Source of the DNA: an uncultured Candidatus Saccharibacteria bacterium
GTDB lineage: Bacteria > Patescibacteriota > Minisyncoccia > Phycocordibacterales > UBA9973
Length of the DNA: 64,000 nt
Direction of reading: 5' to 3'
Assembly (NCBI GenBank): GCA_964634365.1
Contig: CAZWJU010000002.1
Span: 167,150 to 231,149 of the forward strand
The notes under the pieces were generated by a model. The model was not told the origin of the DNA, searched no databases, and saw only the letters and a list, made by a program, of their open reading frames with translations. Made by a program: the position numbers and the translations under genes. How positions within the stretch are numbered: the stretch's first letter is position 1; each line of letters begins with the position of its first letter. Positions 3,980-53,420 of the stretch are shown here, in pieces.

Positions 3980-4058
3980 AAATAGATTATATCAGAAAAA
4001 TGAATAATCGCTTTTTCGCAAATACCATTTGGGTATTTGGATATATTTTTAATGCTGG

Positions 4059-4253
4059 GTCGGGGTGCCGGGTGAGCCGTGTGAGGGAACCCTGTGGGTG
4101 GACGGCGCAAGACCTTTTGAGATATCTTTACGAATATTTGAAGTAAAGTATCCAAAAGGTGTACAGGTTCTGTAAGAACTCGAACCCAGAGTCGCCTCTA
4201 TAATGATCCTCGAATACCGTTTATATACCTGGAGGTTGTTCTTAAAAGTTTTG
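4059..4253 (-). repeat. tRNA-Pro trailer element: degenerate direct copy of tRNA-Pro 3' half (aggcgactctgggttcgagttc) plus exact 14-nt copy of the tRNA 3' end (gtcggggtgccggg at 4059-4072), with a 70% GC segment in between
   Basis: Direct sequence comparison with tRNA-Pro at 4254-4326; spurious 114-aa ORF 4049..4393 overlies it. Confidence 0.6.
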
Positions 4254-4326
4254 TCGGGGTGCCGGGATTCGAACCCGGAGTCGCCTGTTCCCAAAACAGG
4301 AATGTTAGCCGTTACACTACACCCCG
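4254..4326 (-). tRNA. tRNA-Pro (anticodon TGG), no encoded CCA
   Basis: Reverse complement folds as cggggtg/caccccg acceptor, anticodon stem cctgt/acagg with loop tttggga, T-arm ccggg-ttcgaat-cccgg; 73 nt. Confidence 0.8.
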
Positions 4327-4418
4327 ACAAAACTTTCAAAATACATAACTTACACAAAACTAGCTTGTAGGGCTCAGTATAGCCGAGATACATATAATCT
4401 TCAAGTTTTTTATAAATT

Positions 4419-4595
4419 GTGCGGGATAGGAGAATCGGTCACAAATAATTTTTATTACATAAAATTTTCGCGACCCCGACTCAGCGACAAGCACTCGCTT
4501 CGCTCGTCTTGTATACCGCCTCCGTCTTTCGATTCCCCTACCGCACTAAAACACAAAAGCCCGAACACTAACATGTCCGAACTTTGTGTTTTATG
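4419..4595 (-). repeat. tRNA-Gly(GCC) trailer element: hairpin, inverted tRNA-3'-like fragment (gtctttcgattcccctaccgcac on plus strand at 4520-4545), GAGTCGGGGTCGC core (plus strand 4470-4484 as reverse complement), ending in a 19-nt direct copy of the tRNA 3' end (4419-4437)
   Basis: gtgcgggataggagaatcg occurs at 4419-4437 and again as the genuine tRNA 3' end at 4596-4614. Confidence 0.6.
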
Positions 4596-4666
4596 TGCGG
4601 GATAGGAGAATCGAACTCCTGTCTCATCCTTGGCAAGGACGTGTTCTACCACTAAACCAATCCCGC
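4596..4666 (-). tRNA. tRNA-Gly (anticodon GCC), no encoded CCA
   Basis: Reverse complement: gcgggat acceptor, anticodon loop ttgccaa, T-arm ggagttcgattctcc, 3' atcccgc + discriminator A. Confidence 0.75.
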
Positions 4667-4715
4667 ATATTCTTTGTACCTTGCGATATTAACATTGAAA
4701 TCGATTTTGTGCAAA

Positions 4716-4746
4716 AGAAAAACCCTGAAAATCAGGGTTTAGTTTT
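4716..4746. terminator. Intrinsic terminator hairpin aaaccctga-aaa-tcagggttt with flanking T-run
   Basis: Perfect 9-bp inverted repeat, immediately 3' of 4748..5170(-). Confidence 0.6.
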
Positions 4747-4747
4747 T

Positions 4748-5170
4748 TTAGGCGAAGGCCTCTTCGTTTGCGAGCATAAAGAGCCTCTCTACCCACTCGG
4801 TGTATTTACCGAGTATAAAAAAGGTCAGGAGCGCAAGCACGAGCTCGATTGCCACACACTGCGTGTGTGGAAGCATTTCACGCTTGTACTTGGATGTAAG
4901 CTCTGAGCGAATGTTTGCTGCAACCTCACAAAGAGGATTATTTTCCCTTCTGTGCATTACTGCGCTCACAGCTTTTGAAAAATGAAACGAATAGTGAAAA
5001 TCGTTTTTAGAAACCCCCTCCAGAGCTTCTTCAATCCCCTTGGCCAAGGCTTTAAATTCCTTGTCATGATTTGCATCGCCAAGATTTTTGATTTCAACGA
5101 TTTTGTTTATCAGAAACGTCGTGAGCTCCTGAAAATGCCGTTTCCCGGCTTCTTGTTTTTCTACTCGCAT
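4748..5170 (-). CDS. Hypothetical protein
   Basis: 140-aa ORF with terminator right after stop; no recognisable family. Confidence 0.4.
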   Translation of the reverse strand: MRVEKQEAGKRHFQELTTFLINKIVEIKNLGDANHDKEFKALAKGIEEALEGVSKNDFHYSFHFSKAVSAVMHRRENNPLCEVAANIRSELTSKYKREMLPHTQCVAIELVLALLTFFILGKYTEWVERLFMLANEEAFA

Positions 5171-5273
5171 AAAGTGGTTTTGGGTTATTTAATTTGTTTA
5201 AAGAACATATAAAATATTACACCTGTGTTTTTATTTTGACAAGTATTTTTATTTGTTGAGTTTTGTAAAATAG

Positions 5274-5648
5274 CTAAATTATATTTTCAATAACCTTAAC
5301 TTTGGCTTTTTTGTTTACATTATCCAAAAGGACACATACCAAGTCTATTTGCCACTCTATGTCCTTTATATTCTTCTCATGTAAATATGTTGATATTGTC
5401 CTTTGTAATTTGACCAATTTAAATTGATTCATGTTTTCTTCTGGTCTTATTGTAGAATTGAAGCTCATAGACTTAACTTCTATAAAATAAATCGCTTTAT
5501 TCTTTTTTGCGATAATATCTATTTCGCCAAGTCTTCTTGTGTAATTTCTTTCAATTATTTCAAAACCATGTTTCATGAGAAACATACAAGCGATCTCCTC
5601 GCCCAATTCTCCTTTCTTTTGAGATTTTGAAGTAAAAACCTTAGGCAT
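5274..5648 (-). CDS. yraN: YraN-family (UPF0102) predicted endonuclease
   Basis: GELGEEIACMFLMKHGFEIIERNYTRRLGEIDIIAKKNKAIYFIEVKS matches the YraN core (G.E.A...L...G..I..RN....GEID.IA.....F.EVK). Confidence 0.7.
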   Translation of the reverse strand: MPKVFTSKSQKKGELGEEIACMFLMKHGFEIIERNYTRRLGEIDIIAKKNKAIYFIEVKSMSFNSTIRPEENMNQFKLVKLQRTISTYLHEKNIKDIEWQIDLVCVLLDNVNKKAKVKVIENII

Positions 5649-5768
5649 GTTTCATATGAAACTAATAATTTATGTAAAAATGATTATATTTTAGTTACAC
5701 GTGCAACTTTTCTAATAAAAAACCACTTGTTTCATGTGTAACTATTTAAATATGTTTCACGTGAAACA
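5647..5768. promoter_or_regulatory. Array of four related palindromic sites (half-site GTTTCA / GTTACA): gtttcatatgaaac, gttacacgtgcaac, gtttcatgtgtaac, atgtttcacgtgaaacat; the first overlaps the yraN start codon
   Basis: Perfect 14-bp and 18-bp palindromes read directly; spacing about 40, 35 and 25 bp in the AT-rich leader between yraN and the tRNA cluster. Confidence 0.45.
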
Positions 5769-5992
5769 TATTTTTATATAGGACATGAGTTTTCCACCTA
5801 AAAACTACTAAAATTCTACAAACCATTGAAAAATAAGGATATTTTATTGAAAAAAGACTGTGGATAAATACACAACTTGATGTCCTTTATAAACAATATA
5901 CACGCCTTTATCCACATATCATTGAAAAATAAAGTTTTTTTGTGTATAAAAGGACATTTAAACCTGCTGAACAACAGATACTTTACCTAAAT

Positions 5993-6117
5993 GTGCATCC
6001 GGAGGGATTCGAATATTACATATTCAGGTATTTTTCGCTTTTGTTGCACAAAAGATCGAAAAATCTTTCGAATACCCCCCCCCGCAAGCAAAGAAGTTTG
6101 CTTGCTCGTATGCACCA
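5993..6117 (-). pseudogene. Interrupted tRNA-like locus: 3' end shares ccggagggattcgaa with the neighbouring tRNA-Arg; T-loop appears split by a ~62-nt insertion with duplicated tattcgaa, preceded by a run of 9 G and a gcaagca/tgcttgc stem
   Basis: Reverse complement ...gcggggggggg tattcgaa agattttt...atgtaata ttcgaatccctccggatgcac; acceptor pairs gcatacg/cggatgc with one mismatch. Either an intron-containing tRNA or a decayed duplicate. Confidence 0.3.
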
Positions 6118-6120
6118 ATG

Positions 6121-6192
6121 TGCACCCGGAGGGATTCGAACCCCCAACAACGGTTCCGAAGACCGGTATGATATCCATTTCACTACGGGTGC
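6121..6192 (-). tRNA. tRNA-Arg (anticodon TCG read from loop cttcgga), no encoded CCA
   Basis: Reverse complement gcacccg-ta-gtga..tcat-a-ccggt-cttcgga-accgt-tgtt-ggggg-ttcgaat-ccctc-cgggtgc-a; 72 nt; one 27-43 mismatch. Confidence 0.6.
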
Positions 6193-6270
6193 AGTAAAAT
6201 CAGTATAAGCTTTATATAATAAATTGCAAAATAAGGTTTTCCTGATATAATCCATTTTATATTAATAATC

Positions 6271-6341
6271 GCGGGATTAGTTAAATGGTATAACTTCAGT
6301 TTTCCAAACTGAAATCAAGGGTTCGATTCCCTTATCCCGCA
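6271..6341 (+). tRNA. tRNA-Gly (anticodon TCC; alternative register would give CCA), no encoded CCA
   Basis: gcgggat-ta-gtta-aatggta-taac-t-tcagt-tttccaa-actga-aatc-aaggg-ttcgatt-ccctt-atcccgc-a; shares acceptor stem with tRNA-Gly(GCC). Confidence 0.65.
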
Positions 6342-6470
6342 CAAATAATTTTATAGGGATAGTGAGCAAACTGCTTTGCTCACGGAAGGGAATCGAAAGA
6401 CTTTTCCATACAAGCGAAGCGAGACGGAAAAGTACCTGGCTATGTAATAGCCGATTCCCTTATCCCGCAC
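6342..6470 (+). repeat. tRNA-Gly(TCC) trailer element: inverted partial copy of the tRNA 3' end with embedded hairpin (gtgagcaaaCTGCtttgctcac), GCGAAGCGAG motif, ending with a 20-nt direct copy of the tRNA 3' end (6451-6470) 10 nt upstream of the cca start
   Basis: ccgattcccttatcccgcac at 6451-6470 versus tRNA 3' end ttcgattcccttatcccgcac at 6321-6341; gggaatcgaaagac and atacaagcgaagcgag shared with the Gly(GCC) trailer. Confidence 0.6.
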
Positions 6471-6480
6471 AAAATGCTCT

Positions 6481-7959
6481 ATGAGCAAAACACACGAAAT
6501 TAAAAAAGAATCCATACCTACTGAGATATTGGATATATTGAAAACTCTTGAAAGTTCTGGGTTTGAGGCTTTTATCGTAGGTGGCTGTGTTCGTGACTTA
6601 CTACTAAATCGTAAACCAAAAGATTGGGATATAACAACAAATGCAATACCAGAAGAAATAATACCTTTGTATGAAAAAACAGTTTACGAAAATACCTTTG
6701 GTACCGTTGCTGTAATACTAGAAGATAGTGAAGATAAAACACTTAGACAAATAGAGATAACTCCTTATAGAACAGAAGGGAAGTATTCTGACAAAAGACA
6801 CCCGGATACAGTGTCCTTTAGTAAAGATATAAAAGATGATTTAGCCAGAAGAGACTTTACGGTAAATGCTCTTGCCTACAACCCCTCTAGAAGTCAATTA
6901 ATTGACCTTTTTGAGGGTATAAAGGACATAGAGGTCAAAACTATAAGGACAGTCGGCAATCCTTCTGACAGGTTCTCTGAAGACGCTTTACGCATGATCA
7001 GGGCGATTCGTTTTTCTTGTGAACTTGGTTTTGCTGTGGATAACGAAACACTTCAGGCAATTGTGGAAAACGCACAAAATATTTCAGAAATTTCTACAGA
7101 AAGAATTAGAGACGAATTTGTAAAAATAATAATGTCCAAAGAGCCGGTGATAGGTGTTGCTATGCTCCAAAAAACTGGGATGCTTAAATACATAATCCCA
7201 GAACTAGAAGAGGGTATAGGGTGTGAACAGGGAGGTGCGCACAAATACAATGTATATGAGCACTTACTCCAGGCACTCCAACACTCTGCTGACAAAAACT
7301 GGCCACTAGAGATCAGACTCTCAGCGCTCTTTCACGATATCGGTAAGCCAAAAACTCGAAGAAAGGGAGTCAAGAAGGCGTATACATTCTATGGGCACGA
7401 AGTTGTTGGAGCAAGGATGGTTAAGGTGATTATGGAGAGACTAAAGTTCCCGAAAGATACAAGCGAGCTAGTGACAAAGCTAGTAAGACAACACATGTTC
7501 TTCTCTGACACAGAACAAATATCACTTTCTGCTGTACGAAGAATTGTGCGGAATGTAGGAGTGGAAAATATTTGGACACTTATGAATGTGCGTGAGTGTG
7601 ATCGTGTGGGAATGGCAAAAGTAGAAGCTCCATATCGATTGCGTAAATATCATGCAATGATCGAGGAGGTTCTGCGTGATCCGATATCTGTTTCGCAACT
7701 TGTGGTAGATGGAAATATTTTGATGGGTGAACTCAATGTGAAGCCCGGACCTCGCATGGGCTGGATACTAAACTCACTTCTAGAAGAAGTGCTCGATGAC
7801 CCAGCAAAAAATACTCGCGAGTATCTGGATAAAAGAGTAGGGGAACTGAACGAGTTGGAAGATAAAAGTTTGAAATTGTTAGCTGACAAAGCTAAGCAAA
7901 CAAAAGATGAACTAGAGGAAAAAGAGATCGAGGAATTACACAAGAAGCATAGAGTATAA
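6481..7959 (+). CDS. cca: CCA-adding tRNA nucleotidyltransferase (class II pol-beta NTase + HD domain)
   Basis: N-terminal GGCVRDLLL..KDWDITT nucleotidyltransferase motif, RDFTVNA, C-terminal HD (FHDIGKP); needed because none of the tRNA genes encode CCA. Confidence 0.8.
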   Translation: MSKTHEIKKESIPTEILDILKTLESSGFEAFIVGGCVRDLLLNRKPKDWDITTNAIPEEIIPLYEKTVYENTFGTVAVILEDSEDKTLRQIEITPYRTEGKYSDKRHPDTVSFSKDIKDDLARRDFTVNALAYNPSRSQLIDLFEGIKDIEVKTIRTVGNPSDRFSEDALRMIRAIRFSCELGFAVDNETLQAIVENAQNISEISTERIRDEFVKIIMSKEPVIGVAMLQKTGMLKYIIPELEEGIGCEQGGAHKYNVYEHLLQALQHSADKNWPLEIRLSALFHDIGKPKTRRKGVKKAYTFYGHEVVGARMVKVIMERLKFPKDTSELVTKLVRQHMFFSDTEQISLSAVRRIVRNVGVENIWTLMNVRECDRVGMAKVEAPYRLRKYHAMIEEVLRDPISVSQLVVDGNILMGELNVKPGPRMGWILNSLLEEVLDDPAKNTREYLDKRVGELNELEDKSLKLLADKAKQTKDELEEKEIEELHKKHRV

Positions 7960-7965
7960 AATAAA

Positions 7966-7992
7966 TAAAACGAGCCAATTGGCTCGTTTTTG
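7966..7992. terminator. Bidirectional intrinsic terminator aaacgagccaattggctcgttt
   Basis: Perfect 9-bp stem with A-run upstream and T-run downstream, between convergent cca and 7994..8293(-). Confidence 0.7.
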
Positions 7993-7993
7993 T

Positions 7994-8293
7994 TTATTGT
8001 TTGCGATTGAAATAAAATATATCTCCATCGAAAAAGTAAGTTCTTTGATTTAACAGGACATAAGGCACTCTCTCCTCGTCTATTTTGTTCCCCATTTTAC
8101 TTAAAATACAAATATCCAAGTTTTTATTTGTATTTTCAATTAAGCAAAAAGATTGAGTGAAGGGAAAAGAAGAATGTCTTTTAAGTCTATTTTTAATATT
8201 TTTAAACTGCTCTTCACTAATCGGCAAATTGCCTTCGATACAATTTAAAATGTTTGTAAAATTCATATCTGACTTTAAAATAAATTTTTCCAT
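7994..8293 (-). CDS. Hypothetical protein
   Basis: 99-aa ORF, no recognised family. Confidence 0.35.
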   Translation of the reverse strand: MEKFILKSDMNFTNILNCIEGNLPISEEQFKNIKNRLKRHSSFPFTQSFCLIENTNKNLDICILSKMGNKIDEERVPYVLLNQRTYFFDGDIFYFNRKQ

Positions 8294-8339
8294 ATACTGT
8301 TTTTTTGAAAAATAACATATATATATGCGTGTGTCAATA

Positions 8340-8528
8340 TCATATAAAAATAAAAAGCGCTCCGGGGGAGCGCTTTTGGTTCAAAGCCTTCACTACTTTG
8401 ATCGAAAGTAACACTGTTGCAGTCTGTGCCACAATCAATAAAACATAGGCAAGATTTTGATAACCCATAATAGCTACTACAATAGTTAAACAAGCTATTG
8501 TAGTAGCAGTAATTCTCAACGCTTTCAT
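8340..8528 (-). CDS. Possible small membrane protein (62 aa); C-terminal codons overlap a terminator hairpin
   Basis: Hydrophobic ORF; hairpin aaaagcgctccgggggagcgctttt at 8355-8384, near-duplicate of the hairpin at 8611-8640. Confidence 0.25.
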   Translation of the reverse strand: MKALRITATTIACLTIVVAIMGYQNLAYVLLIVAQTATVLLSIKVVKALNQKRSPGALFIFI

Positions 8529-8610
8529 TGTACTTATTTTAAATTTAAAATATCACTATATTTCTTTCTTGTCAAGTTAAAGCTGGTTTCTGATTACAAA
8601 AATACAAATA

Positions 8611-8640
8611 AAAAAACGCTCTCTTGGGAGCGCTTTTGGG
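8611..8640. terminator. Intrinsic terminator aaacgctctcttgggagcgcttt downstream of the 8649..9905 gene
   Basis: Inverted repeat with flanking A/T runs; paralogous to the hairpin at 8355-8384. Confidence 0.6.
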
Positions 8641-8648
8641 CGGACGCT

Positions 8649-9905
8649 TTATATTTTTATGAAAGAAAAAACTTTTCCTTCGATAAGAATATAATATGTT
8701 CCTGCCGGTATACTGAGACAATCAAAAACTTTTCTATTATCAACTTCATTGACCATCAAATATATCTCTTCTGACAAAGAAAATATTCTGATGTTTTTTC
8801 CGGCTCCATTTTCGATGACAAGAAATTCTGTTACAGGATTTGGAAAAATCCTAACTTCACTTTCTGATAAATCTTCTATTCCGTCTTCGTAACAAGAGGG
8901 GAGCGAAATGATTCCTGGAGAATGGATGTCTGCTCCATACGTGAAAGACCCGCCTACATAGACAAAGTCTTCATTTGCAGATAGCGAATATCCATTTCCA
9001 TCGAGCCCTCGATCAGTCTGAACAATCTCTTTTGTGGAGCGTTCAAACATTGCGAAGTTTTCAGCATCGCAATTACCGAAATTTGTAAAACTCCCAACAG
9101 TAAAGACGAAACAATCTGTTGCCTCGATCGCAAGGATATTTCCATCACTTGAAAATATGGAGTCCATATCTCCATCGTCCTTGAATTCAGATAAAATCCC
9201 GTATTCCGACGGAGGAGAAAAACTGGTAGAGGAAACATATATCCTGTCTCCTCCATCTGCCCAAGAAATAAAATATTCTCCCTCGGGAAACACATATTTT
9301 ACTTCCCAAACAGAGTCTTCTAATTCTAGTATTTTTTCTTCTCCAAAATCATTTGTAACACAATATTTTTTATCACCCGAGACAACAAACGAAACCAGGC
9401 TTTCTGTTTCTGGAGAGATAAGCGAGCCCATTTCTCCTGTTGCTGGAATAAAAAAGTGGATCAACGAAGGGGACAGTGTATCGGCAATATAAATTCCTGA
9501 TCTAAAAATAAATATTGTGTCTTCTTTGATCAAAAGATCGGAAATACCTTCTGATTTGCAAACAATATTCCAAGAGCAGGATTCTTCCATTTCCAGAATG
9601 TATTTACTTTCGGTATAGAAATAAAACTTATTGCCATAAGCGACACCGTGAGCTATCTCACCAAGTGAATCGGGAAGCGGACAAGTAAGCCAGTTTTCAA
9701 AAAATAAATCCCCAAAAACGACAGGATCGCCAGCGGAAGATGTCCGACCAACACATAGATTGTTCCCATCTAAACTAACAACAGAAACATAGTCGCCGGA
9801 TTCTTGATCTGGTAGATAATTACTCTCCCAAACAGGGATAAAATTTTGTGCATTTACTGTGCAACAGAAAAACACAGAAAATAAAATTAGTATAAGTTTT
9901 TTCAT
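8649..9905 (-). CDS. Secreted protein with N-terminal signal peptide and C-terminal T9SS-type (Por_Secre_tail-like) sorting domain
   Basis: MKKLILILFSVFFCCTVNAQN signal peptide; C-terminus VRIFPNPVTEFLVIEN...IPAGTYYILIEGKVFSFIKI resembles the ~80-aa T9SS CTD motif (PNP..l.i...G.Y.v.v). Confidence 0.5.
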   Translation of the reverse strand: MKKLILILFSVFFCCTVNAQNFIPVWESNYLPDQESGDYVSVVSLDGNNLCVGRTSSAGDPVVFGDLFFENWLTCPLPDSLGEIAHGVAYGNKFYFYTESKYILEMEESCSWNIVCKSEGISDLLIKEDTIFIFRSGIYIADTLSPSLIHFFIPATGEMGSLISPETESLVSFVVSGDKKYCVTNDFGEEKILELEDSVWEVKYVFPEGEYFISWADGGDRIYVSSTSFSPPSEYGILSEFKDDGDMDSIFSSDGNILAIEATDCFVFTVGSFTNFGNCDAENFAMFERSTKEIVQTDRGLDGNGYSLSANEDFVYVGGSFTYGADIHSPGIISLPSCYEDGIEDLSESEVRIFPNPVTEFLVIENGAGKNIRIFSLSEEIYLMVNEVDNRKVFDCLSIPAGTYYILIEGKVFSFIKI

Positions 9906-9978
9906 ATCAAAGTGCTTTGCAGTGTATTATCTCACACAAAAAATAAAAAACTCTGCTGTGTGCAGAGTTTTGGTAAAA

Positions 9979-10140
9979 TTAAACGTATCTTTTGTTGGGA
10001 GTGGATTTAATGACTAAAACAAATCCAGCAATAACCGCTATTCCGAAAACTATTCCTGAATAAATAAAATTTCCTGTAACTGCTGATGCAGTAAATCCGG
10101 ATACAGCAAGAACGCTAATTGAGATAACAATTTTTTTCAT
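9979..10140 (-). CDS. Small (53 aa) hydrophobic protein MKKIVISISVLAVSGFTASAVTGNFIYSGIVFGIAVIAGFVLVIKSTPNKRYV, absent from the ORF track (<60 aa)
   Basis: Hand translation of the minus strand; ATG at 10138-10140, TAA at 9979-9981; terminator hairpin aaactctgcTGTGtgcagagttt at 9945-9970 just downstream. Confidence 0.35.
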   Translation of the reverse strand: MKKIVISISVLAVSGFTASAVTGNFIYSGIVFGIAVIAGFVLVIKSTPNKRYV

Positions 10141-10305
10141 TATTTGATTTTTTTGAGTTAAATAAAAAGTTTAAATTTTAGTGAGATAGGCAAACCGTAT
10201 AGTCATAGCCTATCTGCCATATATGACGTATGAAACAGTATTTTGTGACAAAGGCAAAATAGCCTTATAAAACAAAGTAAAAAGGATGCAAAATGCATCC
10301 TTTGT

Positions 10306-11190
10306 TTAAAATCTTTTAAACAATCTTCTCTTTGGTAAAACTGCGACAAGGGGTGCTGTATGATGTATGTATTTATCTATAGAAACAGGTTTGAGTCCTG
10401 GCTCTGTATAACATACTTCTATTTCACAAACCTCTTGTGGTGATATGTACAATAAAGCAAGTGTTGTATCAACTTTTTCCAACAAAGATTTTCTAATTGC
10501 TAAAAGTTCTTCTTTTGTAAAAGACTTACCAAAACATCTTTTCTGATGTGCTGGGCTAGCATAAACACTGTCGGACAAAACTTGATCTATGTCGTACATA
10601 TTTCTTTCGGTTAATCCAAATTTTTCCATCAATACAGGATCTATAAAGCGTATACCGTCTGAGCGCCTGCCTCTGGTATAAAAACCAGGGTGTGGATTTT
10701 TAGGATCGTTTGGATACCAACACGCAGCACTTGCGTGCGATATTATATTTTTATCTATAATATCTGGGTATTTTCTTTTCAGAGAGTCATTCAACCATCT
10801 ACCTGCTTTTATTTGCATATCGGTAAGTGGCTCATCAAAATACCCAACGTATTCAATGCCTATAAAAAATCGTGACAAGCTAGTGTCTCCTTCATAATAC
10901 GAATCACCCGCATGATCAGCCGCCCGCCAATCGTCGCATATAAGTTCAATACGCCCAGCGCGATTGATCAAATAATTTGTCATCGGAGGACCGTAGTTTA
11001 TACACTGAAGCCAGGTACGACATCCAGGCCAGTCACCTTGGGTATCGTGATTGATTATGCCTATAGTCTTTTCTCTGGGAGGGGTTTCGTCGTTAAACCT
11101 ACTGCGCTCATCATGAATTACAAAAGTGTCTTGTGAGTAAAGTGGTAGCAATAAAACTACACACATTACACAAAAAAAGATTTTTTTCAT
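10306..11190 (-). CDS. N-acetylmuramoyl-L-alanine amidase (Amidase_2 / PGRP-like), secreted; likely start at internal Met (MKKIFFCVM...), frame extends to 11226
   Basis: HDTQGDW...NYLINRAGRIE...AADHAG motifs of zinc amidase_2; signal peptide after second Met; terminator hairpin at 10279-10304. Confidence 0.65.
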   Translation of the reverse strand: MKKIFFCVMCVVLLLPLYSQDTFVIHDERSRFNDETPPREKTIGIINHDTQGDWPGCRTWLQCINYGPPMTNYLINRAGRIELICDDWRAADHAGDSYYEGDTSLSRFFIGIEYVGYFDEPLTDMQIKAGRWLNDSLKRKYPDIIDKNIISHASAACWYPNDPKNPHPGFYTRGRRSDGIRFIDPVLMEKFGLTERNMYDIDQVLSDSVYASPAHQKRCFGKSFTKEELLAIRKSLLEKVDTTLALLYISPQEVCEIEVCYTEPGLKPVSIDKYIHHTAPLVAVLPKRRLFKRF

Positions 11191-11274
11191 ATATGTAGTT
11201 TTAAATGTACTAATTCTAGTGTACAAAATAATTTTATAAAAAGAAAAGACCCGCTAATGGGGTCTTTGGTGTTT

Positions 11275-11727
11275 TTAGTTTGTTATTGTTTTTATTTCAT
11301 CTTCTTTTGGTTTTAGATTTGTGTAGACCAAAAGCATGAATATATAAACATAAATAGATAGAAACACAACAACAATTGCGGCGTTTGCCACGCTTACGTC
11401 AGATGAAAAAAAACTAATGTTTTGCGCATCTGGATATATCTTGTAAACCAAAAAACCAACAGAATTCAAAACAATAAACCACAAAAAGAAGCTGGCGATA
11501 GTTAAAAAACCTAACTTTCTGAAATTTTTTTTCTTTGATACATCGTCAGTATCTCTTTCTTTTAAAGTCAGAGAGCGTTTGGTGTGTACAAACCATAGAG
11601 AATACAAAACCGAAGATACAATTAAAATCGGCATCGATTCTATGGGCGAGAAAAACAACGCCGCAAAAATCAAGCAAATGACCGTCTGCCAAACAGGTAG
11701 GGTAAAGATAAAAAAACTTTTATTCAT
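11275..11727 (-). CDS. Hypothetical multi-pass membrane protein
   Basis: 150-aa ORF with 4 hydrophobic segments; terminator aagacccgctaatggggtctt at 11247-11272. Confidence 0.4.
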   Translation of the reverse strand: MNKSFFIFTLPVWQTVICLIFAALFFSPIESMPILIVSSVLYSLWFVHTKRSLTLKERDTDDVSKKKNFRKLGFLTIASFFLWFIVLNSVGFLVYKIYPDAQNISFFSSDVSVANAAIVVVFLSIYVYIFMLLVYTNLKPKEDEIKTITN

Positions 11728-11796
11728 ACGTATGCGATTTTAAAATGAACAATTAGATGAGACTAAAATATAACCTGAAAAATACCCTTTGTCAAA

Positions 11797-12561
11797 TTAC
11801 TCAATAGAATCCCACATAAATTGAAATAGCGTCAGGAACGTATTTGCGATATCAGTGTTTTCAATAATCGTGGTGACCATAGCATCTTTGTTTTTAACAG
11901 AAGTTATACTAACCTTGCCTTTGTAAATCAAGATGTAAGCTGGCAAGACAAATTTATCTTTTGGGATTATTTTACGAGTTATATTACGCTCCATATCATG
12001 CGAATACACAACACTAGACATATGCTCTAGTTTTGGAGTTAAGACGTACGACCTAATACCAGCTTGCGATTGTTTCTTTAGTTGTTCGCTTATGAGTGTG
12101 CGAAGCTCTTTGTTTTCGTGGTCGTAGAGAGATCTGAAAACAAATACTTCTTTTACGTTTTTCAAAATATCTGAATAGGTTTCTCTTATACCATCGAAAC
12201 CTTCAAAGAATTTTACATGCGGACGAGAATGTAGAGTGTTGAAGTCGCTTACAAGATGTTCTATTACTTTTCCATAGGCTAGGCTCGCTTCATCTGCGAG
12301 AAGTTTTTTCTCTTCAGCAACTCTTTTGATACTTTCTGGATGTTTTGCTCTCCATAACGCAACCTTTCCTATGTTTTCTACTTTTTCACACAAGCCGATA
12401 GCAGTGAGTTGGTCTAGCACATAGTAAGTAAGCTCTCTACCTACTCCAGCATTTTTAGAAATATTACGAACAGGTAAAAGAGGGGACGAGAGGAGCACTT
12501 CATATATAAGAGCCTGCTCTCGGGTTAATCCTATGCGAATTAGTTCATTTGTGTAGTTCAT
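11797..12561 (-). CDS. TrmB-family transcriptional regulator
   Basis: N-terminus IRIGLTREQALIYEVLLSSP...ISKNAGVGRELTYYVLDQLTAIGL is the same wHTH architecture as 1002..1772. Confidence 0.55.
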   Translation of the reverse strand: MNYTNELIRIGLTREQALIYEVLLSSPLLPVRNISKNAGVGRELTYYVLDQLTAIGLCEKVENIGKVALWRAKHPESIKRVAEEKKLLADEASLAYGKVIEHLVSDFNTLHSRPHVKFFEGFDGIRETYSDILKNVKEVFVFRSLYDHENKELRTLISEQLKKQSQAGIRSYVLTPKLEHMSSVVYSHDMERNITRKIIPKDKFVLPAYILIYKGKVSITSVKNKDAMVTTIIENTDIANTFLTLFQFMWDSIE

Positions 12562-46930: not shown

Positions 46931-47003
46931 CCTCCCGTAGCTCAGTCGGTAGAGCAGCTCCCTTTTAAGGAGAGGGTCGTAGGTTCGATTCCTACCGGGA
47001 GGA
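46931..47003 (+). tRNA. tRNA-Lys (anticodon TTT), no encoded CCA
   Basis: cctcccg-ta-gctc-agtcggta-gagc-a-gctcc-cttttaa-ggaga-gggtc-gtagg-ttcgatt-cctac-cgggagg-a. Confidence 0.7.
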
Positions 47004-47180
47004 CAAGGTCGAAAAAGTGGACTGCTCCACTTTTGAGTACACTTGTCCTAGACGGAAACATGTTTCGTTAGCAGACGAAACAGTTGAGTCGGGGTCGCAG
47101 AAAAATACGAGCGGCGGCGAGTATTTTATCTGTGACGACACATTCACTCTTAAATAAGGAAAGATTCCTACCAAGATAAT
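47004..47180 (+). repeat. tRNA-Lys trailer element: hairpin aaaagtggaCTGCtccactttt, core GAGTCGGGGTCGC (47086-47098) ...ACGAGCGGCGGCGAGTA..TGTGACGACA, ending with a 10-nt copy of the tRNA 3' region (gattcctacc, 47163-47172)
   Basis: Aligned by eye with the element after tRNA-Arg(GCG) (53146-53300) and after tRNA-Gly(GCC). Confidence 0.55.
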
Positions 47181-53002: not shown

Positions 53003-53073
53003 AAATAAAAACACCCATCTCGGGTGTTTTTATTTACAAAATCCTTAAAATACAGTATATTTCAATCTGCTAC

Positions 53074-53145
53074 GGCCCCGTAGTTCAACGGATAGAATGC
53101 AAGATTGCGGATCTTGTGATCCAAGTTCGATTCTTGGCGGGGTCA
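53074..53145 (+). tRNA. tRNA-Arg (anticodon GCG as read; loop ttgcgga), no encoded CCA
   Basis: ggccccg-ta-gttc-aacggata-gaat-g-caaga-ttgcgga-tcttg-tgat-ccaag-ttcgatt-cttgg-cggggtc-a; 72 nt. Confidence 0.6.
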
Positions 53146-53420
53146 CATATAAGAAAAAGACTGGACTGCTCCAGCCTTTTTCTTATATGTGACGGGCGCA
53201 GTGATGTTTTATTAGAGAACAAAACCACGAGCCGGGGTCGAGAAATTTTGCGAGTGGCGACGAGTAAAATATTCGTGACCACAAGGTGGTATAATGAGCA
53301 GACTTAGTAACTTGTGACCACATTAAATCTCTATGTGACGACAAGAAATTGTTTGTAGCCACACTACTAAAAGTCGCGATAAATTTCCATCAGGAAATTT
53401 ACTTGTGATCATACCTAAAA
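53146..53420 (+). repeat. tRNA-Arg trailer element expanded into an iteron-like array: 16-bp-stem hairpin with loop actggaCTGCtccagc (53146-53193), core GAGCCGGGGTCG (53229-53240)...GCGAGTGGCGACGAGTA, then 5-6 copies of (T)TGTGAC(N)ACA-like sites
   Basis: Sites read at 53180(tatgtgacggg), 53271(ttcgtgaccaca), 53311(cttgtgaccaca), 53332(tatgtgacgaca), 53356(ttgtagccaca), 53401(cttgtgatcata); followed by an AT-rich stretch to 53610. Confidence 0.55.

Follow-up and report, generated by a model that had tools for sequence, protein, structure and literature searches.

We analyzed a 64,000-nt stretch of DNA (here called the window; GenBank assembly GCA_964634365.1, contig CAZWJU010000002.1, positions 167,150 to 231,149, forward strand) in which a tRNA-Arg(TCG) gene is followed, on the same minus strand, by a 127-nt structured element. 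The window is bacterial chromosome, encoding PNPase, PBP1, PolA, and a CCA-adding enzyme (Pfam domains); the nearest homologues of the CCA-adding enzyme are labelled Pacebacteria, Nomurabacteria, or Paceibacterota, which places the source organism in the candidate phyla radiation (CPR)/Patescibacteria. Here, we describe the element, its sibling behind tRNA-Gly(TCC), and related sequences from other genomes and contigs used for comparison (numbered L001, L003, L010, L105, etc.), and we assign it to a large unannotated family of tails lying 3' of tRNA and transfer-messenger RNA (tmRNA) genes.

The tRNA-Arg(TCG) locus

6202 to 6230, minus: putative sigma-70-like promoter of tRNA-Arg and its tail (consensus matches only).
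6224 to 6251, plus: putative sigma-70-like promoter of tRNA-Gly(TCC), divergent from the Arg promoter (consensus matches only).
6121 to 6192, minus: tRNA-Arg(TCG), complete, without encoded CCA (ARAGORN, 6120/6121 to 6192; Rfam RF00005, 62.3 bits, full model).
6119 to 5993, minus: short-type tail element of tRNA-Arg, 127 nt (covariance model R1, 107 bits, E = 1.8e-25; aligns with the Gly sibling).
6107 to 6113, minus: AS-acc (GCATACG), complement of the acceptor 3' strand (sequence reading; helix P0a in the alignment test).
6084 to 6105, minus: hairpin 1, a 9-bp stem GCAAGCAAA/TTTGCTTGC with a CUUC tetraloop (pairing and covariation in 28 elements).
6067 to 6083, minus: AS-T, a G9 run (6083 to 6075) followed by TATTCGAA (sequence comparison).
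6028 to 6065, minus: Pb, a stem GATTTTTCG/CGAAAAAT(A)C around a variable inner hairpin, CTTTTG-TGCAA-CAAAAG (alignment pairing).
6011 to 6025, minus: Pd, a stem GAATA/TATTC with a conserved pentaloop UGUAA and a conserved ACCUG before the stem (covariation).
5993 to 6013, minus: copy of tRNA-Arg nt 54 to 73 plus the next C (TTCGAATCCCTCCGGATGCAC), 21 nt with one G-to-A change (sequence comparison).

The tRNA-Arg gene was 72 nt long (position 6120 is the C after the discriminator), and ARAGORN and Rfam both called it intact. The two divergent promoters scored 9/12 and 10/12 consensus positions in a consensus scan, and the tail had a predicted folding energy of −45.3 kcal/mol (z-score, −4.8). 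AS-acc and AS-T form an antisense arm, split by hairpin 1 at the place of the acceptor/T-stem junction (nt 65/66). AS-acc pairs at 6/7 positions with the downstream copy (CGGATGC); one of these pairs, T-A, would become T.G if the arm were paired with the tRNA instead. AS-T complements the T-stem 3' strand CCCTC (one G.U) and the T-loop TTCGAAT of tRNA-Arg and of the copy alike. The repeat extends past the copy (ATT at 5992 to 5990 is also duplicated), such that 6013 to 5990 is identical to tRNA-Arg at 23/24 positions, from T54 to 4 nt beyond the discriminator.

A preliminary description of this site had proposed an interrupted tRNA-like sequence sharing the 3' end of tRNA-Arg on the minus strand. 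The shared end was present as ccggagggattcgaa (5999 to 6013 and 6126 to 6140), within the longer repeat given above; the G9 run was likewise found, as were both copies of the octamer tattcgaa (minus strand, 6015 to 6008 and 6074 to 6067). The structural picture holds, in that the helix closing the locus resembles an acceptor and T-stem and a large insert takes the T-loop position, but the insert had been put at ~62 nt, and the octamers stand 59 nt apart and enclose 51 nt. The reported gcaagca/tgcttgc hairpin lies within 6105 to 6084 and is a 9-bp stem (A-U pairs included) with a CUUC tetraloop, not 7 bp with an 8-nt loop. D and anticodon arms are absent, an outcome that the description itself had named as counting against its proposal; an isotype-independent hairpin sits in their place. 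The description had missed the tRNA-Gly(TCC) sibling 150 nt away and related elements behind most other tRNAs of the window.

Structure of the tail and pairing with its tRNA

Short-type elements (n = 28) were aligned with MAFFT, no structure being used in aligning; an explicit structure was tested afterwards, and model R1 was built from the same alignment. In the proposed structure, 84.5% of cells were paired, versus 34 to 50% with partners slid by 1 to 3 columns, and 25/38 pairs had changed on both sides; 0/500 shuffles attained the observed values. Hairpin 1 was paired in 99.6% of cells (its three outer pairs covary) and Pb in 95.4% (double changes in 5/7 pairs), and all four pairs of Pd covary around a loop with invariant G, U, and A. 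These three helices owe nothing to tRNA sequence. The Pd pentaloop UGUAA is, by its sequence, compatible with a U...A T-loop motif. Double changes were also found in an acceptor-like helix (P0a) and a T-stem-like helix (P0b), which end in a discriminator-like base, and the position of the D/anticodon arms is filled by a hairpin, GCNAGCAAA-CUGC-UUUGCUNGC, in elements of 17 isotypes.

The arm is antisense to the tRNA 3' half. Among 19 tRNAs with a non-Watson-Crick T-stem pair, it matched the complement of the 3' strand exactly in 11, was nearer to the 5' strand in 4, and equal to the 5' strand in 0. It also complements T-loop nt 59 to 60, reading AATCGAA, ATTCGAA, AGTCGAA, or GCTCGAA according to the tRNA, and is not a TTCGA repeat. 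True complementarity of the arm to the 3' strand and to nt 59 to 60 speaks against both a decaying second tRNA and a T-loop broken by an insertion that duplicated its target; the apparent duplication of the octamer tattcgaa is due solely to the palindromic T-loop of tRNA-Arg, TTCGAA, and is lacking in the Gly sibling.

Family-wide, 712/800 arm positions were Watson-Crick with tRNA nt 56 to 65. At nt 59 to 65, the arm was 83 to 86% Watson-Crick with its tRNA whether the copy was good, poor, or missing, against 55% in shuffled pairings. Wherever tRNA and copy disagree, the arm was Watson-Crick to the tRNA at 51/53 positions, and at the informative positions among nt 59 to 65, it followed the tRNA nine times and the copy never. 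We take the relation of the arm to its own tRNA to be primary, and the copy to be dispensable, because the arm tracks the tRNA where the copy diverges or is missing. The acceptor part of the tRNA-Arg element in the window is a counterexample, in that an arm T pairs with the A of the copy.

When tRNA and tail were folded together, the predicted minimum-free-energy structure at both the Arg and Gly(TCC) loci paired the tRNA 5' half with the copy and the tRNA 3' half with the arm. This conformer beat tRNA and tail folded apart by just 2.2 and 4.7 kcal/mol, so the precursor is predicted to be nearly bistable; transcription order and tRNA tertiary structure should favor the ordinary tRNA.

Strand signal and transcription

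Elements with a long core (below) carry a helix, P3, in which pair 5 was G.U in 43/45 copies and pairs 3, 4, and 6 to 9 covary. P3 contained ~59 G.U cells versus 0 A.C cells; since a G.U pair would read as an A.C mismatch on the other strand, this argues that the long core functions as RNA in the tRNA sense. At neither the Arg nor the Gly(TCC) locus was a terminator-like site found between tRNA and short tail. With promoters present and no such site intervening, cotranscription of these two tails with their tRNAs is likely.

The family across genomes

Species-representative genomes were scanned with hairpin 1 plus the following TCGAA as the query. At least 120 DNA stretches carried the motif, chiefly from Patescibacteria of many classes, with some in contigs of Elusimicrobia or Proteobacteria metagenome-assembled genomes (MAGs); the figures in this paragraph and the next are from the matches listed. 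Many copies lay at contig ends. Behind same-strand tRNAs, at distances of 3 to 113 nt, were 78 copies (17 isotypes), ~50 of which then carry a repeat of the 3' end of their own tRNA. The other copies stand behind tmRNA genes, as second units of tandem arrays, or alone. R1 recovered from the window exactly two short elements (115.9 and 107 bits) plus a weak core behind tRNA-Pro. In 100 other loci, it gave 127 hits; of the 44 at ≥60 bits, 35 were directly behind a same-strand tRNA and 0 were on the opposite strand.

Elements are 105 to 190 nt long. Along the tRNA strand, the layout is tRNA, trailer, acceptor complement, hairpin 1, T-stem/T-loop complement (...NNTCGAA), core, and copy. The trailer is often a terminator-like hairpin whose helix runs on into the tRNA 3' end, and the copy comprises tRNA nt 56/57 to 73, at times with the whole terminator. 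The copy starts at nt 54 to 57 at all four type-A loci of the window, and a copy starting in the T-loop was present in 40 to 60 of the 80 tRNA-linked elements analyzed. Cores are of two types, short (Pb, then Pd with a YGUAR loop) and long (P2, with a 3-bp base, bulged G, and tandem G.A, plus P3). At tmRNA (ssrA) genes in L066, L077, L095, L119, and L121, the arms complement ...CCCCCATCTCCACA, and a copy of that 3' end lies downstream.

Some variants depart from this layout. Copies in L022, L053, L070, L076, and L097 have an extra mini-hairpin (e.g., CGAT-AAGTGTACCCACGG-TCT) between CGA(T/A) and the T-stem 3' strand. Compact high-GC elements, with P3 cut to GGTCGCG-GTA-CGTGACC, were found in L012 (Betaproteobacteria MAG, 68% GC), behind tRNA-Glu with a direct repeat spanning the whole terminator, and in L024 (Burkholderiales MAG); either the family reaches beyond Patescibacteria or these contigs are mis-binned. 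Campylobacterota MAGs L044, L055, L087, and L106 contain a repeat with the hairpin AAAGCAAACTGCTTTGCTTT followed by ...TAGCTTCGAAACCG..., not beside tRNAs, which appears to be a different family with only the hairpin in common; that hairpin may move as a unit of its own or have arisen by convergence.

Rfam was searched with the whole window at gathering thresholds and with 5800 to 6700, 4040 to 4680, and 53050 to 53360 at E values up to 10, and only tRNAs and meaningless hairpin/microRNA matches were returned. The family is widespread and apparently undescribed: no description of it was found in the literature or Rfam, including under the hairpin 1 sequence, although absence from these libraries is no proof of novelty.

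Turnover and neighborhood

Relatives whose CCA enzymes are 72 to 87% identical retain the synteny UPF0102, tRNAs, cca, and the tails change within this frame. Orthologues of tRNA-Arg(TCG) carry tails of differing type, being type B in L003, L006, L008, and L010 and short in the window and L105. L010 and L011 have identical CCA enzymes, and L011 has an extra type-B unit of ~135 nt exactly after ...GGGTGCAC of tRNA-Arg. Between the window and L003, tRNA-Gly(GCC) and tRNA-Gly(TCC) are swapped, and the arm and copy of the orthologous long tail have changed accordingly (GGGGAATCG/CGATTCTCC versus AGGGAATCG/CGATTCCCT).

The swapped tRNA-Gly sites are 4595 to 4666 and 6271 to 6341 in the window versus 2004 to 2075 and 3881 to 3952 in L003, with flanking gene order unchanged; the swap is also seen against L005, and in L006 an inversion affects the Arg plus Gly(GCC) pair. 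The tRNAs of this region are often shuffled locally. The organism is present in Logan runs SRR12487045 and SRR12486993. Two Logan contigs with the window's cca gene (L001 and L002), from independent assemblies, both begin at window position ~6428, the same base inside the Gly-linked element, and many matches of the genome scan were <200 nt from contig ends (among the matches listed), consistent with tail elements acting as assembly-breaking repeats.

Open reading frames (ORFs) were clustered across the 120 neighborhoods listed, and a Pfam scan covered 10 ORFs of the window, 7 of them within ~5 kb of the tRNA-Arg tail. The ORF clusters comprised only housekeeping genes plus the syntenic cca and UPF0102, and no integrase, transposase, or reverse transcriptase recurred in the neighborhoods or occurred among the 10 window ORFs. 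IMG/VR viral contigs gave 45 motif matches, all phage coding sequence or chance, and no genuine element (plasmids were not searched); megablast of 4000 to 12000 against phage records gave no match. No autonomous long versions, with ORFs between tRNA and copy, were found.

Other tails in the window

6271 to 6341, plus: tRNA-Gly(TCC), 150 nt from the Arg locus.
6343 to 6470, plus: sibling short-type element behind tRNA-Gly(TCC) (R1, 115.9 bits; alignment with the Arg element).
6354 to 6360, plus: AS-acc of the Gly(TCC) element.
6362 to 6383, plus: hairpin 1 of the Gly(TCC) element.
6386 to 6397, plus: AS-T of the Gly(TCC) element.
6401 to 6407 and 6426 to 6432, plus: Pb of the Gly(TCC) element.
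6439 to 6451, plus: Pd of the Gly(TCC) element.
6452 to 6470, plus: copy in the Gly(TCC) element.
4595 to 4666, minus: tRNA-Gly(GCC).
4420 to 4594, minus: long-type element behind tRNA-Gly(GCC) (copy at 4438 to 4420).
46931 to 47004, plus: tRNA followed by the first type-B tail.
47005 to 47139, plus: type-B tail without 3' copy, with a short antisense GTCCT and a P2/P3 core ending in TGTGACGAC.
53074 to 53146, plus: tRNA-Arg(GCG).
53147 to 53282, plus: type-B tail behind tRNA-Arg(GCG), ending in GTGACCAC.
4253 to 4326, minus: tRNA-Pro (downstream region, 4056 to 4252).

The Arg and Gly(TCC) tails share a 23-nt motif, GAAAARTACCTGNNTATGTAATA, which occurs at exactly these two sites of the window (0 in 100 shuffles); together with the R1 score and the folding z-score, this puts the Arg locus well outside what chance would give. 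The Gly(TCC) copy is a perfect repeat of nt 56 to 73 of its own tRNA plus the next C, and the ATG of the cca ORF (CCA-adding enzyme, by Pfam domains) follows at 6481, 10 nt past the copy; both short copies end in ...GCA-C, as their tRNAs do. In the long tail of tRNA-Gly(GCC), a terminator-like trailer hairpin precedes an uninterrupted antisense arm (GTGCGGTAGGGGAATCG), the P2 and P3 core, and the copy. The two type-B tails have no 3' copy and share the core GAGYCGGGGTCG...hairpin...GTGAC(C/G)AC. In a survey of the sequence behind every tRNA of the window, tRNA-Trp was the only one with a plain terminator; structured tails are the rule behind tRNAs in this lineage.

Behind tRNA-Pro lie sense fragments of that tRNA (nt 41 to 58 at ~4197 to 4180 and nt 60 to 73 at ~4073 to 4060), and between them is a weak short-type core in inverted orientation (4109 to 4179, plus; R1, 16 bits, E = 0.03). 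The downstream fragment continues into CCAGCA, i.e., an encoded CCA that the intact tRNA-Pro of the window lacks; the same flank directly follows tRNA-Pro in the relative L010. Distant copies of tRNA 3' ends, which would mark larger islands, were absent from the window, including behind the type-B tRNAs, and the few far copies in other loci were accounted for by sister tRNAs.

Octamer direct repeats resembling GTGACCAC trail the type-B tail of tRNA-Arg(GCG) (53273 to ~53325; GTGACCAC, GTGACCAC, GTGACGAC), and an equivalent repeat, ATGACCAC, trails a type-B tail in L003 (~3600 to 3580); they look like truncated 3' ends of further units. ARAGORN called the tRNA at 46931 to 47004 tRNA-Stop (anticodon TTA), and the Rfam alignment places the loop as CUUUUAA, giving the anticodon UUU and a stem with four Watson-Crick pairs. 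The gene more probably encodes tRNA-Lys(UUU) than a suppressor tRNA; with code 11, the ORFs of the window read normally. Two perfect inverted DnaA-box nonamers, TGTGGATAA and TTATCCACA (5859 to 5867 and 5908 to 5916), separate the UPF0102 gene from the Arg tail; of these, TGTGGATAA also occurs at the corresponding position in L006 and L105. The cumulative GC-skew minimum of the window is at ~16 to 18 kb; the boxes may belong to a DnaA-regulated promoter or be origin related.

Interpretation

Our preference, a tentative one, is that the tRNA-Arg element is a short-type member of the tail family described above, cotranscribed with its tRNA, mimicking and able to pair with the tRNA 3' half, and installed or exchanged at the T-loop. 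The tRNA promoter would drive transcription of tRNA and tail alike. As the first part to fold, the tRNA would leave the antisense arm to pair with the downstream copy, forming a self-contained mimic of the acceptor/T-stem half in which the core takes the place of the T-loop. Enzymes of tRNA end processing (RNase P-type and RNase Z-type cuts, then CCA addition) would probably excise this mimic, releasing the tRNA, a tail RNA of ~125 nt, and, at the Gly(TCC) copy, the 5' end of the cca mRNA. Alternatively, the arm could pair with the 3' half of its own tRNA, giving a near-bistable precursor. Installation and exchange of the module may occur through recombination or template switching at the T-loop, a sequence that is near universal and in part palindromic; the direct repeat of the tRNA 3' end, the tandem arrays, and the fast turnover would follow from this. 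The tail RNA might serve in 3'-end maturation or punctuation, act as a decoy, or do no more than persist.

Several points weigh against this preference. The acceptor-like helix P0a is just 65% paired family-wide, and the downstream copy is absent or degenerate in about one-quarter of members and imperfect in another quarter; a strict need for a tRNA-like 3' end is therefore hard to uphold. Short-type elements show no excess of G.U cells (43) over A.C cells (38), which confines the RNA-strand signal to the core of the long type. Many long forms have a terminator-like hairpin between tRNA and tail, which would limit read-through. Transcription of the tail, its processing, and its recognition as tRNA-like are deduced from sequence. 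Gene conversion at the DNA level within the inverted repeat, rather than an RNA function, could keep the arm complementary to its tRNA. The position of hairpin 1 and the retargeting of the arm to new tRNAs are left unexplained.

The main rival, which we regard as possible if on the doubtful side, is selfish miniature DNA. A nonautonomous integrative or mobile element would have the T-loop region of tRNA and tmRNA genes as its target and would supply a replacement 3' end, as genomic islands do; its hairpins, in single-stranded or cruciform DNA, would serve a recombinase encoded at another site, and its RNA would be functionless. Direct repeats running from the T-loop to the 3' end, or through the whole terminator (L010, L012, L050, and L053), are an island signature, and tmRNA genes are targeted too. 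One unit is gained or lost between two strains, tandem arrays occur, and many copies are at contig ends. At tRNA-Pro, the downstream copy retains the flank CCCAGC that directly follows tRNA-Pro in L010, and a short core also lies inverted between the fragments. Against this rival, no integrase, transposase, or reverse transcriptase recurs in the 120 neighborhoods listed or the window region, and no genuine copy was found on IMG/VR contigs. An attR would be expected to carry an inverted core-binding site, which is missing from the right junction, and the arms differ by tRNA, hence there are no constant terminal repeats. The conserved G.U and zero A.C of P3 point to RNA in the tRNA sense, and strong R1 hits are co-oriented with tRNAs (35/44 on the same strand, 0 opposite). 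The relation to mobile-like sequence raised in the preliminary description was reasonable, but both specific mechanisms that it offered, a noncanonical intron and a decaying duplicate, fail (below).

We consider it unlikely that the family is a protein-gene-free element, specific to tRNA and tmRNA genes, that installs itself by copying its target, with arm and copy both templated from the tRNA 3' half. Templating would proceed by fold-back and template switching at the palindromic T-loop or by an RNA-guided step, and the RNA so made would mimic its host tRNA as well as pair with it.

Quite improbable, in our judgment, is a catalytic, self-cleaving RNA that makes the tRNA 3' end, analogous to theta ribozymes (hepatitis delta virus [HDV]-like), with the arm positioning the cleavage site. 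The element does lie directly 3' of CCA-less tRNA genes; the trailer helices of all type-B tails begin 5 nt inside the tRNA 3' end and covary (GTGAC/GTCAC, GTCCT/AGGAC, GTGCA/TGCAC, and GTGCG/CGCAC); invariant unpaired nucleotides and the conserved G.U are present; and theta ribozymes are a precedent (PMC10879173). However, no Rfam ribozyme matched even at E values up to 10, and the covariation-backed fold is one of nested hairpins (P0, hairpin 1, Pb, and Pd), not an HDV-like double pseudoknot. Core motifs of hammerhead, twister, pistol, and hatchet ribozymes were not seen on sequence inspection, and short and long cores differ, which would be odd for one catalytic fold.

A T-loop intron or 3'-half swap, whereby the tRNA would be made from the upstream 5' part and the downstream copy, with the ~127 nt between removed or tolerated, is very unlikely. 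The minimum-free-energy fold at the Arg and Gly(TCC) loci is exactly such a conformer (by 2.2 to 4.7 kcal/mol), but the upstream tRNA is complete without splicing, so that no intron is needed, and cotranscriptional folding and tRNA tertiary structure favor the ordinary tRNA. The copy is absent or degenerate in about one-quarter of members and missing from type-B tails, and the arm follows the tRNA, not a diverged copy. The element is just 127 nt long and has no group I core (RF00028, E values up to 10, three subregions); the predicted folds have continuous helices at both junctions and no 3-4-3 bulge-helix-bulge (BHB), although no dedicated BHB search was run.

Finally, a second, tandem copy of tRNA-Arg in decay, its T-loop disrupted by a small insertion that left an 8-bp target-site duplication, can be dismissed as extremely improbable: the acceptor-like and T-stem-like segments and the repeated tattcgaa suggest it, and the tRNA-Pro locus does hold real sense fragments around a core (nt 41 to 58 and 60 to 73), but the arm is the 3'-strand complement (11 exact versus 0 for the 5' strand in 19 cases) and also complements nt 59 to 60, the same hairpin replaces the D and anticodon arms in 17 isotypes, the Gly sibling has no 8-bp duplication, and the direct repeat varies from 17 to ~60 nt.

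Other candidates were rejected: an element derived from a miniature inverted-repeat transposable element or insertion sequence (IS) (arms change per tRNA, direct repeat of 17 to ~60 nt, 8-bp "duplication" due to the palindromic T-loop); an integron attC or dif-like site (core sequences do not fit, by sequence reading); IS200/IS605 or TnpB omega-RNA logic (TnpA/TnpB absent, and such systems not expected to leave direct repeats); a retron (no reverse transcriptase); a primer-binding site for mature tRNA (no CCA complement); an autoregulatory cca leader (relatives have a different tRNA or element, or none, before cca); and a hairpin ribozyme (core motifs absent, by sequence reading).

Relation to known systems

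Structures resembling tRNA and cut by tRNA enzymes include mascRNA/MALAT1, the tRNA-like domain of tmRNA, and viral tRNA-like structures. The tails are like these in having a coaxial acceptor/T-stem helix and a discriminator-like base, with no CCA, and enzyme cuts could define the ends of neighboring RNAs; they are unlike them in that the helix is made from the sequence of the neighboring tRNA, with one hairpin for the D/anticodon domain and a 60- to 110-nt core for the T-loop. Primer-binding sites of retroviruses and long terminal repeat elements comprise 18 nt complementary to a tRNA 3' end. The tails similarly contain ~18 to 20 nt that complement a tRNA from nt 56/58 to its 3' end, but their arm complements gene-encoded sequence, including trailer bases, generally without TGG for CCA, is split by a hairpin, and has no reverse transcriptase associated.

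Islands at tRNA and tmRNA genes are described as having a repeat mode of 20 to 25 bp and an attB that begins in the T-loop (Williams 2002, cited in 10.1101/2020.11.02.365908, PMC9897764). The tail family is like islands, prophages, and integrative and conjugative elements in combining a complete tRNA with a partial 3' direct repeat from the T-loop, in its use of tmRNA genes, and in strain variation. Unlike islands, the tail elements are 105 to 190 nt long, noncoding, and covarying, with an arm antisense to the repeat, and have no integrase nearby, kilobase-scale cargo, or attR-type inverted core site; no circular or viral form was found, and the repeat ranges from ~17 to ~60 nt in one family. 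Theta ribozymes are minimal HDV-like ribozymes that adjoin phage tRNAs in gut Caudoviricetes and are proposed to act on the tRNA 3' trailer (PMC10879173). The tails, too, are small structured RNAs directly beside same-strand tRNA genes, but they are found in Patescibacteria chromosomes, carry a tRNA-specific antisense arm and a 3'-end copy, and have no HDV double pseudoknot. In Patescibacteria, tRNA group I introns lie in the anticodon loop (35/36), are full ribozymes found by RF00028, and splice in vitro (PMC13011429). The tails share with these introns the phylum, the association with tRNA genes, and structure at the RNA level; unlike them, they lie downstream of an uninterrupted tRNA and have no group I core.

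Implications

Should the family prove real and undescribed, an unannotated structured partner would accompany most tRNA genes across a broad section of the bacterial tree (Patescibacteria, some Elusimicrobia, and others). For annotation and assembly, the elements matter as sources of partial tRNA hits. It is a puzzle how an enzyme-less module of ~100 nt is retargeted to ~20 different tRNAs and tmRNA; the variant in which the element copies its target, if true, would be a previously undescribed, retargetable mechanism of tRNA-specific mobility. In these reduced genomes, a cis-acting RNA that mimics or unfolds the 3' half of its own tRNA offers a hypothesis for 3'-end maturation, tRNA-mRNA punctuation, and tRNA quality control.

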